This document shows positions 3,335-18,778 of a DNA stretch of 20,000 nucleotides, piece after piece. Below the pieces are notes generated by a model, which did no database searches, was not told where the DNA came from, and worked only from the letters and a program-made list of their open reading frames with translations. Numbering within the stretch: position 1 is the stretch's first letter; each line of letters starts with the position of its first letter. The stretch is taken from contig MU271403.1 of NCBI GenBank assembly GCA_021432655.1, forward strand, positions 53,057 through 73,056, read 5' to 3'. The stretch comes from Atractiella rhizophila. Taxonomy: Eukaryota. Both the position numbers and the translations under genes were made by a program.

Positions 3335-5700
3335 ATGTCGCAACTTATCCTGGAAGAAGACGACCCTCGTCTTTACTCCCTCCACTCCCAATACATGGAG
3401 GTTAGTTGTCTGCTTTCTCTCAGGAATAAATTGTTCCTACATTGTGATGTTATAGACCAAGTTTAGATGGAACATCTCACGAGATAACAGTCTCGCGCTC
3501 CTTTCGCCCGTCAACGGACGCCTCAGACAAGCCATGATCCGCTCTCCCACCTTTGGAGCTCGCAGATGGCGCGTCATGTTGATGGTGCGTCATTTCATCA
3601 TTTTATTTCCGTCTTATATCCTTTTTGTTGGAGGTACCTATCTGATTCGCTGTTTCCAGCTGATAGAGCGGAAGCTAGTCGTTGCGCTCCAGACGGTCGT
3701 CACGGACGAAGATAGGGACATCGATCCCATCCAGACACACAGATGGTGGAGCTCGTCCTCACCCAGCACGCTGACTATCGTCGAGGACCCACGGTACATG
3801 GTCGAGGTCCGTTTCCTCCTCAAACTTTCCTGCATCAGTCCTGCGAGGCTTTTATGCTGATCACTCGCTCTTTAGCTCCAACTCATCGACCAGAACGGTC
3901 ACACCTCACAGATCGTCCAGACCGGAGGAGACCAGTTCCTGAATAACCACCATGAGTCGGGGACGGAAGTCAGGTATCCCACACCTTCCCTTTCTCCTAA
4001 GCTCCAGCTCCACACTCATTGACCACTGCTCCTTCGAATGACAGAGTACATCTAATGGACGACCTCGAACCGGAAGGAAAGCCAATCTACAAACAACACC
4101 TCGAAGCCGTGTGTCCCCTCCATCCTGCCTCCCCCTCGTGTTGCCTCAAAAACTGAAACTTCGTGGAACAGGGCGGCAGTTTCCGAATGGAGATCTCCAT
4201 CTTCGAATCGGGGCGGTTCAAGTCTTTATCATACGAAGAGGCGCACCCGGAGAGTGTCGAGCTGAAGAAGTCGTTACAGGCTCAAGAGGCGCAGTGTCGG
4301 TTTCTGTCTCATTCCGCAAAATCCTTGCTTGTCACGTTGGACGATGAGACTATGGCCGATACTGTGTTTGTGTTTTATCGAGGTAAAGAAAACGGAAAGG
4401 GAAGCGGTGGAGGAGAGACTGATACTGATAGAGAAGGGAGCAAAGGAGGAGATAAGGGGGAGAAGAGAATTTATGCTAAGATGTCGGTGTTGAAGACTCT
4501 ATGCGAATACTTTGAGGACATGTTTGAGAGCGGACTGAAGGAGTGTACGGTCGATTGGGAGGAGGCGGAGGGAGGAGGAGCGAAACCATTGGAATGGAAC
4601 AAGAAAGGGGAGGAAGGGAAGGAGGACGAGAATGGGAAGGAGGCGGAGGGTGACGTGAGGAGGAAAGCTGACGAGAGGATGTCAGTCAGCGAGGAGTCTT
4701 GTGCGTCTCACCTCCCTTGTTATCCCAATAACATGAGCTGAACCGACAGAGATAGCGACGGAGAGTGAGGACGAGGAAGGCCCAGACGATGACTCCGATA
4801 TCGAGGAAGATGAATACGACTTCCATCCTCAAGCTGTACGTGTCTCTTCCACTGCCTCAAGCTATCGATGATGGTCTTTCTTTAGAGAAAAGAAGTGAAC
4901 ATCGCGAAGATGTCACAAGTACCCATCCGACACGCGGCGTACATATCCTACTATGCCCTCCTATACTTTCTCATCTCCGGGTAGGCCACTTCCATCCCTC
5001 CCCACTCCATGAATGGGAGCTGACATTTGCGTACGCGTCTGGTGAAAAGACGGATAGATTTTGCCTCCATCCGCTCCTCCTCATCCTCCACTTCGAGCAT
5101 ATCATCATCCACAGCTTCGTTAGTTCCCTCTACAGACAGGAGGAAGGTCCTATCTTCCCTACAAGAGGCAGGAGCGAACGAATTCGGGATCGCACCCTGT
5201 TACCCCGTCAGTCCAAAGTCGATGTACAAGCTCGCAGACCGTTTGTCACCTCAATCCCATCCCATCCATTTAGAATGTTTATTTGAGATGCTAAATTGGA
5301 TGGTGGATAGGATACCGATTGGACTCTCTGAAGGAGCTGTGCTTCGTACACATCAAACAGTCCCTCGACGTCAATAACGTCGTGATTGAGATCTTTAGCG
5401 CGTTTTCGAGTACTTATGACAGTGTGAGGAAACTGCAGATTCAGTATTTGACCGAACACTGGGTGCGTCTTCCATCCCTCCCTGAATCGGTTAAAATAGC
5501 ACGATTGACTGGGTCATTGTTTTGGTGGGATGTAGGAAGAAGTTAAGAATACAGTGCAGTGGAAGAACTTGGAGAACAACATCAGTCCCGGACAGATTTC
5601 GATTTGGTGAGCTTCTTATCCCCTTGAGTCGATTAGAGCGCGTTAGCTCATGCTGGATCTGTTGTGCAGGCGAGAAATATGTGAAAGCCTTCGTCCTTAA
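3335..5700 (+). CDS. BTB/POZ-domain protein with a MATH-like N-terminus and BACK-like C-terminus (putative Cul3 adaptor), about 550 aa, 12 exons
   Basis: Exons 3335-3400, 3456-3584, 3660-3806, 3876-3973, 4045-4108, 4172-4700, 4756-4835, 4886-4980, 5050-5240, 5311-5462, 5536-5606 and 5670-5700 total 1653 nt in frame, all GT-AG. BTB motifs: ADTVFVF..RIYAKMSVLKTLCEYFEDMFESGLKE, IRHAAYISYYALLYFLISGRIDFASIRS, SPKSMYKLADRYRLDSLKELCF, LDVNNVVIEIFSAFSSTY. The N-terminal FRWNI..SPTFGARRWRV is MATH-like (weaker call). Confidence 0.85.
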
Positions 5701-15625: not shown

Positions 15626-18600
15626 TCAAGATTTTTCTTGTCTGGGGGGACGATCCCCCAGGGCACCGATGTCGTGAATCTCACTCCAAAGATTGAGAGG
15701 GTGTATGGGCATGTTCTTGTGTGCCTCGAAGCTTTTGATGAGTTCTCTCGCGTCAGCAGTATTCCTTCGGCCAGCTAACGACCCAGGAGGCGGATGTTGG
15801 CCTGGTATCTTGGTAATTCCTGTCAAGTTGTCGTCCGGCGGTGGCTGTTTCCGCCGTCGGAATAATGATTCCGTTGCGGCTGTAGCTTTCTTCTCCTTCT
15901 TTGCCACTTCGCTCTCCAGTCGTCGTAGAGTAGACTTGTACTTCGAGTCTCGATGCCGAAATCCGTCAAGGTACATCTTTATTGCGCTATCCAATATGTT
16001 TCAATAATGCGCCGATATTCAATGTCAATACACTTACCCTTCTTGTATGGCTCCCACTTCCTCGACCGGTCGTTGTAAAACAGCAATGTCCTCTTCTGCC
16101 TCCAATGGCCGCACCACACCGAATGTATTGATCCGCTCTCGTATCATGTGATTAGTAAAAACTGGCCGCTGGACATGTGGATTAATATTGCTGTTCAGAA
16201 GAGGGGAAGAACGTACGTGGAATGGCTGCAACGAGGTATAGATGCTATGCCTCTGGTCAACTTCTGTTGCATGCAGACAACGAAAGGGCGAACGTCTTAT
16301 CCAATCCTCTGACTTTGTTTCTTGGTCCTTCGACCTTTTTGTCGAGCCTGAGGACGCTAAGTCTCCTACTGAGAGCGACTCCTCCATTATTCGGCTCTTC
16401 GGTCTGTACAGGGGTGTCGGGTACTGCTTGCACCCATTTTGTGAAGCTAGCGACGCTCCGGAAGAGGTATTTGGCAGGGGTAGTGAATGAGAAGAGGATG
16501 AAGTCGTGGCATACGCCGTCGTAGATTTGTAGGTGGATGTCTGTTGGGCGATACTGTAATGCCTTCTGCGTGTATTCTGCCTGTGCATCTAGAAGAGATT
16601 GGCGAATGGGATACTTCGAGGGGTTTGAGGCCCTATGCGAAAGCTACTCTGTTGTTTAGCCCTTCTCATTGAGGTGGCTGAAGAACACACATATATGATC
16701 TCATCCCGCAGGCGTTCTTTATCACCGCAGGTGATGAGCAAAGGAGGTAATCCTGTGACAGTCTATCGGCAGGCTTCCATCGATATCATCCAACTTACCT
16801 CCCAAACTAGGCTGCATCAATGGGTTCACATATCGATAACACAGTTGTTCTGTTGTGGCATACATTTGAATCTGTTCGGAGAGCTCGATCGTTTTACCGT
16901 CAATCATGACCTTGAGGAGGCCGTCATCGTCTGCCTTCTCCTCTCCAGTAGCTTCGTCAGGTCGCTGTTTATCGCCCTTCTTCGGGCGGATTGATTCACT
17001 GACGATAGGTCGGAATCGTTTGCTCTCTGGATGGGGATGGGGCAGCGACGGCACTGGCCATAGAGCGGAGGGCTTGTGGACGAATCCGTAGTGTGCTGTA
17101 CACCATTTCGTCACTTTAAACTGAACTGAAACAGTGTAACATACGCAAGAAGTCCGTGTCTGCGTTCGCGATGACGGATGGAAAAGAGTGAGTGAGGTCG
17201 CACCAAGGGCTTATGAGGACTCCTCCAGCAGGAAGGGGGAGGTCTAGATCTCGTAGCACGCAGAGAAGATTTAGAGCGAGGTTTCCACCAGCCGAGTCAC
17301 CCGCAATTACGATCTTGTTCGGGTCGATGGCACGATGTTTGGCATCTTTCGGTGGGCGAATCAGGTATAGATACGCGGCGAGGACGTCTGCCAAAGCACA
17401 AGGGAAAGGGAACTGTGGTGCCAGCCGATAGCGAACGGCGAATGCTCGCCCTCCCATCTTGCGCGCATGTCGCCAGATGGTATATCTGCCAATAGAAAAG
17501 TGGTCACAACGGAAAGGAAAGGACCGCAGAAGGTATGCTTGCCTGTGAGTATTGATATCTCCCCAGTAGAAACCACCTCCCTGTTTCTCTCGTTCAGGTC
17601 AAGGAAGAAGAAGCAGAAGCAGCTCACGCTGTCTGCCTTTCAGCAAACGAGAATAGACATGGCAGGAATGACCTACTGAATGTACAGAATGACAGGCATG
17701 CTGTCCAAATGCTCCTCGTACTCTCCTTCATCATGCTCCGTCCGCTCAGCCTTTGGCAATTGCTGCTCTCTAGCCGCTTCGATTCCACTAGGCAGCTTCT
17801 TTTCATCCTGAGAACTGGTATTCGGTGTCGTGATCGTACTTTGCGGGAGGTTCGGATGCTGACTTGCATTAGACGTCCTCCGCATGAAAGAGGAGAGCTT
17901 TTGCCCAATGGAGGGTCTACGCGAAAGTTTGGAAGAAGTGGTAGGGGGAGAAGAAGGCGTCGTTGGCGGCGCTGATTTCGAACCTTGGAGGGGAACTGAG
18001 TCTGGTGGGTTTGCTGGTGCTGGTTGCGGCGGATGTTGACGGCGAGAGCCGAGGACGCGTGAAAAGAATTCGAAACCCTCCCCTCCCGTCGGACTCATAG
18101 GCTCGTTATCGTCCAATGAGGCTGACGAATCTTGAGGCAGATCCGGCCCTTTCCAGTCCCTGCTCCAAGATTCCCTCAGCCGTCGACTTGGTTAATCTAG
18201 AGGAAGCCGCACCGCTTCATTGATATCCATTCTGCTTCAACCCCATTAATGAGACGTCGCCTCCACCATTGAGTTCCACCAAAGACCTTGTTCATGTCCT
18301 CTTCTCCAATAGCTTGCACAATGTAGTTGTCCGCATCCTTACAAGACTCAGCAGAGATGATCGTTTTGAGGACGAGAATCCCTGGACAACAAAGGCTCTT
18401 CAGAGTAGCCGAGAGAGAGAGCAAAGATTCGACTCACAAGGAGGAGATGGTACATAGGCTTCTGAAAAGCGCTGTACATCTTCCACAGTATGTCGTGCCA
18501 GCCGTTCATTGAAATCTGGATTCCTTCAACTCTCCTCCCTTCGAAGAGGAGAGAAATCACCTCGCATAACATGGAAAGCTGCATCATAAGCAAACTCCTT

Positions 18601-18778
18601 ATTCGCCGGCCTGTCCAGCTACTCAGCTTCTAGAAAGAAAGGAATGAGGAGAGGCACACAGGTCATGAGAGTGAGAGGGCATCAGAAAATGCTTCGCCGT
18701 GGTCTTTGTGAGCTCCGTGAGGCCGCCCAAGCCCACAGTAAAGGTGTTGAGAGGCGGCTGCAGGTCTGGAAAGGGCAT
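15626..18778 (-). CDS. Hormone-sensitive-lipase (GDXG / Abhydrolase_3) family esterase/lipase, about 835 aa, 14 exons including a 1-nt exon
   Basis: Exons 18778-18660, 18610-18561, 18515-18438, 18381-18213, 18159-17677, 17628, 17580-17543, 17485-17145, 17095-16799, 16752-16691, 16643-16294, 16244-16217, 16168-16038 and 15986-15626 total 2508 nt in frame. Motifs: VILYIHGGGFYWG, YRLAPQFPFPCAL, nucleophile GDSAGG, ISPWCDLTHSFPS, GLPPLLITCGDKERLRDE, LQIYDGVCHD. Confidence 0.92.
17486..17542 (-). other. GC-AG intron (57 nt) in the hydrolase gene
   Basis: CAC AG|gcaagc...ttggcag|A TAT ACC ATC TGG CGA CAT. Removing it gives NTHRYTIWRHARKMGGR. Confidence 0.75.
17628..17628 (-). other. Predicted single-nucleotide micro-exon (C) of the hydrolase gene
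   Basis: The minus strand reads ATT CA|gtaggt...agacag|C|gtgagc...aaacag|GGA GGT GGT TTC, with flanking introns of 48 and 47 nt. Including the C gives I-H-G-G-G-F. Confidence 0.82.

Follow-up and report, generated by a model that had tools for sequence, protein, structure and literature searches.

A single C at position 17628 is very probably a genuine one-nucleotide internal exon in the gene of a hydrolase of the hormone-sensitive lipase (HSL) type with about 835 amino acids (aa) in Atractiella rhizophila, a fungus of the Atractiellomycetes (Pucciniomycotina), and both transcript contigs spanning the site contain it. The window analysed is a stretch of 20,000 nucleotides (nt) from this fungus (assembly GCA_021432655.1, contig MU271403.1, positions 53,057 to 73,056 of the forward strand); window positions are used throughout, and the gene is read on the minus strand. 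A sequence-only reading of the window had proposed that the C forms an exon of its own and completes the His codon of the HGGG motif. Its coordinates and sequence statements were all correct on the minus strand, and its central claim is now supported by two contigs, the reading frame and the motif.

The site in the DNA

The elements around the site were as follows, where X3 and X5 are the two runs whose spliced contigs cross it.

17677..18159, minus strand: exon 5, the upstream exon, ending ...ATT CTG TAC ATT CA in phase 2; from public-protein mapping and an X3 contig piece (17677-18150) with 0 differences
17629..17676, minus strand: upstream intron I5a, 48 nt, with donor gtaggt, CTGAA 11 nt before its 3' end and acceptor acag; absent from the X3 and X5 contigs
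17628..17628, minus strand: one-nucleotide exon (C), the third base of the His codon CA/C of HGGG; from its AG/GT flanks and the X3 and X5 contigs
17581..17627, minus strand: downstream intron I5b, 47 nt, with donor gtgagc, CTGAA 13 nt before its 3' end and acceptor acag; absent from the X3 and X5 contigs
17543..17580, minus strand: 38-nt exon encoding GGGFYWGDINTH and bases 1 and 2 of an Arg codon; from the X3 and X5 contig pieces 17543-17580

Exon 5 is followed directly by gtaggt, and reading through would give CAG TAG, an immediate stop. The 38-nt exon starts with GGA GGT GGT TTC TAC TGG at 17580 and is preceded by ...aacag. The gap between the two exons (17581-17676) is 96 nt long, and splicing it out as one intron would cause a frameshift. 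At the centre of the gap lies ag-C-gtgagc (17630-17622), which splits it into 48 and 47 nt, and a script found C 17628 to be the sole base of the gap with AG before it and GT or GC after it. By size, donor, acceptor and branch-like element, I5a and I5b are each viable alone. The remaining introns of the gene were seen by eye to have similar YTRAN-type elements, 9-18 nt short of the intron end.

The composition of the gap was shuffled as a measure of chance. A central AG-Y-GT leaving halves of 40-56 nt occurred in 555 of 20000 shuffles, a central AG-C-GT in 4267 of 300000, and a central AG-C-GT together with a GTRAGY donor in 41 of 300000.

Transcript evidence

Twenty-four runs contained part of the gene, and four of them (X3, X4, X5 and X8) were compared with window positions 16200-18150. 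X3 held one contig of 2504 nt from which every intron of the compared stretch was removed, and over seven pieces (about 1700 bases) it showed 0 other letters and 0 gaps against the window. This contig skips 17581-17676, in place of which it has a single letter (record position 1724). X5, which is labelled with a different organism and study, held a contig of 343 nt with 5 differences from the window, and its source is a slightly diverged organism; it has the same joint and the same letter. The extra letter is G on the plus strand in both contigs, which is C on the coding strand, so the mature mRNA reads ...CA, C, GGA..., and a single extra C, as the sequence-only reading had predicted, was present in two spliced contigs from two runs. 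In the window this mRNA base is contiguous with neither flanking exon. The X3 contig also confirmed five other introns in full and the 3' boundary of one more. The metatranscriptomes X4 and X8 had no contig over 17520-17717 and were uninformative on the one-base exon.

Coding outcome and gene structure

The outcome of each splicing pattern was computed.

1-nt and 38-nt exons included: coding sequence (CDS) of 2508 nt, 835 aa, open; local protein ...VILYI-H-GGGFYWGDINTH-R-YTIW...
C omitted: stop at codon 354
5-nt alternative exon (acceptor ggcag): stop at codon 377
upstream intron I5a retained: immediate TAG
downstream intron I5b retained: stop at codon 370

The frameshift expected from loss of the C was thus borne out, and so was the failure of the 5-nt exon made through ggcag to restore the frame. 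This candidate was rejected on account of its frameshift and of the contigs, which hold a single extra letter.

The gene model was built from public-protein mapping onto the window and from RNA joints; X3 supports seven introns, and the other boundaries come from the public protein. The remaining elements of the model were:

15626..18778, minus strand: whole coding region with 14 exons and 13 introns, CDS 2508 nt, 835 aa with the 1-nt and 38-nt exons
17486..17542, minus strand: GC-AG intron of 57 nt with donor gcaagc, adjoining the 38-nt exon on its downstream side; X3 joint 17485->17543
17145..17485, minus strand: Abhydrolase_3 core exon with the GDSAGG nucleophile elbow; Pfam PF07859 E 8.8e-27, 100% identical to public protein P0001, covered by X3, X4, X5 and X8 contigs

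The assembled model of 14 exons was translated without internal stop. Besides I5a and I5b the gene has 11 introns, with lengths of 49, 45, 56, 53, 57, 49, 46, 47, 49, 48 and 51 nt, in agreement with the range of 45-57 nt given earlier from the sequence. A single intron of 96 nt would be an outlier at about twice this size. The ends of the GC-AG intron appear as CT..GC on the plus strand in the X3 joint, and a loose end of the X5 contig is consistent with it. If this intron were retained, the frame would stay open with no stop and gain 19 codons.

The protein and its public models

The gene is predicted from its sequence to encode an HSL-type alpha/beta hydrolase of about 835 aa with the Pfam domain Abhydrolase_3. 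The top protein match of exon stretch 17146-17484 was an 'alpha/beta-hydrolase' of A. rhizophila with 100% identity, and PF07859 was matched by the open reading frame of the window (E 8.8e-27) and by public protein P0121 (E 7.1e-31). Bacterial HSL-family esterases and human hormone-sensitive lipase were the closest solved relatives of an ortholog. With the upstream exon as query (141 aa, near lengths), no protein matched at E <= 0.001.

In HSL-type hydrolases, HGG(G) upstream of the nucleophile is the oxyanion-hole motif. HGGG occurs in the corrected mRNA only. When P0001 was aligned with 11 orthologs, which covered 12 of the 120 protein matches, GDSAGG, the ...LRDE... stretch and a C-terminal His were invariant columns, and by analogy the nucleophile of GDSAGG, the conserved acidic residue and the C-terminal His would form the catalytic triad.

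Two public records, P0001 and P0121, represent the gene. Each has 822 aa, they lie on two contigs and are identical in 820 of 822 residues, and the copies are probably two haplotypes. The window is the P0121 copy, which it matches at both differing residues (His38 and Leu562); codon 16557-16559 is Leu in the window and P0121 and Val in P0001, and the X3 contig follows the window there. Both models read ...LYIQ/YTIW..., where the donor at 17676 is joined to the acceptor at 17486 by an intron of 191 nt. This join omits the 1-nt and 38-nt exons, 39 nt in frame, by which 13 residues are lost and His is changed to Gln, and thus the HGGG motif is missing from both models. The 822-aa form looks like a predictor's detour round a frameshift, and the RNA contigs crossing the site, which may hide rare isoforms, gave no support for it. 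That gene predictors would miss the one-base exon had been foreseen, and P0001 and P0121 indeed both omit the exon and the motif.

The orthologs were in agreement with the corrected protein. The 13-residue segment missing in P0001 was present in 11 of 11 aligned orthologs, colinear with the corrected protein, and the GGGFYWGDINTH stretch of the 38-nt exon was aligned with the orthologs' GGAYYFGSVNTH. His stands at the head of the segment in 9 of these 11, and HGG was found at the motif place in 103 of the 120 protein matches. Against a profile of the 11 orthologs, the corrected protein scored 860.0 bits and the public model 803.6 bits. The Pfam Abhydrolase_3 match begins at profile position 22 in P0121 and at position 1 in two orthologs.

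Two public protein records are corrected by this result. Since P0001 and P0121 are without the catalytic HGGG segment, function prediction or expression from them would yield a dead enzyme. For annotation pipelines, the site makes a case for testing 1-nt exons wherever the phases of adjacent exons do not match across a gap of two usual intron lengths.

As a separate observation, 17 of the 120 public orthologs had no normal HGG at the motif place (P0011, P0012, P0014-P0017, P0019, P0026, P0050, P0042, P0071, P0088, P0070, P0085, P0113, P0102 and P0001). His was replaced by Trp in nine Sporobolomyces models, by Phe in one model, by Pro in two and by Thr in one; three agaricomycete models were garbled around HG/GG, and one model was without the segment. 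Some of these may be real substitutions, and others may reflect mis-set splice sites or missed tiny exons.

Alternative explanations

Several points weigh against the one-nucleotide exon. The RNA evidence consists of assembled contigs without raw reads, in which minor isoforms, splicing intermediates and the order of splicing are invisible, and RNA alone cannot separate a 1-nt exon from an assembly that misses one C at an exon edge. Among sampled 31-letter words of 16200-18150, the Logan contigs of the DNA runs X1 and X2 held fractions of 1.00 and 0.98, and these runs may be the source of the assembly, so that the match would not be independent of it. The CTGAA branch elements were picked by eye. 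A metagenome scan with the 12-protein alignment gave 80 related loci, and 0 of the 80 share the 1-nt exon arrangement. The scan says little on the age of the exon, because most of the loci belong to distant fungi or are cDNA-like: 79 of 80 encode LY.HGG in one piece, none of these 79 is a close relative of Atractiella, and the remaining locus has introns elsewhere. In one of the loci (L019, nearest to Microbotryomycetes-type proteins) the motif lies within an open frame of 465 codons, and this locus may be a cDNA.

The sequence-only reading saw a possible on/off switch in skipping of the C, with its frameshift. In an extension of this idea, the 1-nt and 38-nt exons could together be a regulated cassette, whose inclusion would give the active enzyme and whose omission would give the 822-aa form without the oxyanion-hole motif. 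The frame is kept when donor 17676 is joined to acceptor 17486, and the adjoining intron has a weaker GC donor, both of which would fit such a switch. The fully included form was the one found in 2 of 2 contigs crossing the site, however (contigs drop rare variants), and the 822-aa form is sufficiently explained as the predictor's way round the frameshift, so the cassette is unlikely.

An error in the assembly would be another account, in which the assembly dropped a C that truly ends exon 5 or begins the 38-nt exon, the gap is a single intron of 96 nt and no 1-nt exon exists; the mRNA sequence would be identical. X3 agrees with the window at every other of about 1700 bases, and the supposed indel would need to coincide exactly with a splice junction. 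An intron of 96 nt would be about twice as long as the other 11, and a central AG-C-GT whose base equals the 'missing' C, with a GTRAGY donor behind it, arose in only 41 of 300000 shuffles. The complete word match of X1 points the same way, with the reservation given above. The second copy (P0001, on the other contig) has the same site-avoiding 822-aa model, which indirectly suggests that it has the same sequence. Taken with these points, an assembly error is quite improbable.

Still less credit can be given to the reading that the transcripts come from the other copy or allele with an ordinary structure, the copy in the window being a frameshifted, non-functional allele. It draws on the assembly having a pair of near-identical copies, P0001 and P0121, on separate contigs, but the X3 contig equals the window over all compared exons, including the Leu codon that differs from P0001, both copies carry the same evasive gene model, and the window shows no damage to any of the 13 introns or to the remaining frame. 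RNA editing or polymerase slippage, by which the extra C would arise after or at transcription instead of by splicing, is formally compatible with an extra base and has nothing specific in its favour; it is practically negligible beside a canonical AG-C-GT in mid-gap with both halves of standard intron size and no homopolymer at either junction, and it also counts against it that we know of no insertional editing of fungal nuclear genes, a point to which no literature search was aimed.

Proposed splicing around the C

In the one-nucleotide exon model, removal of both introns would join CA, C and GGA into His-Gly-Gly-Gly. Each of I5a and I5b would be recognised across itself, and such intron definition is expected because all introns of the gene have 45-57 nt. 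The acceptor of I5a and the donor of I5b overlap within 5 nt, so that two spliceosomes could hardly sit there together and the introns would be removed successively; sequential splicing around C 17628 is plausible on these steric grounds. Either order of removal would leave a canonical intermediate. If the upstream intron were removed first, the bases before the second donor would change from AG-C to CA-C, giving a marginally better exon context, as CA-C is marginally nearer to the usual exon-side consensus than AG-C.

Folding of the RNA added little to this scheme. The 136-nt region gave z = -1.27, and a hairpin at 17606-17642 (minus strand), which encloses the I5a acceptor, the C and the I5b donor, gave dG -15.3 kcal/mol and z = -1.81 with 7 of 200 shuffles equal; both values are too weak to build on. 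An origin of the two introns by tandem duplication of one was rejected, with no support from the I5a-I5b alignment (score 6, rank 2 of 78 pairs, top score 9), and no further copies of I5a or I5b were found in the window beyond 13-nt matches.

Comparison with other one-nucleotide exons

In plants, a single-nucleotide exon of Arabidopsis APC11 was proven by mutating the base (Guo & Liu 2015, PMC4674806), and APC11 and VPS55 have 1-nt microexons conserved across land plants (PMC8831610). As in these genes, the base in the hydrolase is flanked by AG/GT between two introns, essential for the frame, un-annotated and 'extra' in cDNA. Long introns surround the base in plants (the gap in APC11 is 422 nt), in contrast to the minimal 48 and 47 nt of the hydrolase; APC11 is backed by mutation of the base, whereas the hydrolase exon is known from DNA and transcript contigs; and, unlike the plant cases, the base here is a C inside the codon of a catalytic motif.

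The nearest likeness among fungi is the one-nucleotide exon of the CYP621A P450 genes of Fusarium, described as 'the first for ... a fungal gene' (Nelson & Syed 2026, PMC12940212). Both cases concern a fungal nuclear gene with a 1-nt exon in the codon of a conserved motif and a gap of about twice the usual intron, and in both, public RNA data support the exon and the public models get the site wrong. CYP621A belongs to a P450 of the Ascomycota, with the base G (AGGGT) in the middle of a Gly codon and conservation in 20 orthologs, whereas the hydrolase belongs to the Pucciniomycotina and to Abhydrolase_3, with the base C (AGCGT) as third base of a His codon and conservation evident in the transcript of one close relative only.

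For the basidiomycete Coprinopsis cinerea, a long-read annotation lists '1 nt, 13 exons in 13 genes' (PMC12230235). Short introns are common to both fungi, and the omission of ultra-short exons breaks gene models in both; the Coprinopsis figure is a genome-wide tally, while the hydrolase is one individual case. The statement of the sequence-only reading that internal 1-nt exons are 'very rarely documented' was right as to their rarity, and has to be qualified by these printed cases, with one fungal gene family and 13 exons annotated in one mushroom.

Stwintrons are spliceosomal twin introns of fungi in which the donor, branch point or acceptor of an outer intron is split by an inner one, and no base of the pair stays in the mRNA (PMC5587772, PMC6616335). 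They share with the hydrolase site the presence of two U2-type introns at one spot and consecutive splicing. The hydrolase site is not a stwintron as these accounts describe it, since both introns have complete signals and one base is left in the mRNA.

The literature search found no 1-nt exons in Atractiella or Pucciniomycotina, and the supplementary list of Coprinopsis could include an ortholog. The hydrolase exon is thus the first case found for Pucciniomycotina and for an alpha/beta hydrolase, and one more RNA-supported one-nucleotide exon on a very short list. With flanking introns close to the minimum size in this gene, it is also a compact natural system in which to ask how splice sites 1 nt apart are dealt with by two spliceosomes.

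Minor observations

The one metagenome locus with introns elsewhere (L055, nearest to Rhizoctonia- and Naganishia-type proteins) reads, at its positions 3439-3589, CAC GGC, an intron of 70 nt, an exon of 13 nt (3509-3521) and an intron of 68 nt. By homology its motif would be HG/GAYY/WGSINTHRY, with slashes at the introns. This 13-nt exon at the same motif and the 17 of 120 public models with unusual residues in place of the His are the leads for a hot-spot of ultra-short exons in the HGGG region of basidiomycetes. Such a hot-spot, together with a 39-nt cassette and a weak GC-AG intron that would tune enzyme activity, is a speculative and unlikely idea.

In the soil metatranscriptome X4, a contig of 182 nt at 16200-16361 reads unspliced through the intron 16245-16293, and it would be pre-mRNA or else contaminating DNA from a nearly identical Atractiella present in the sample.

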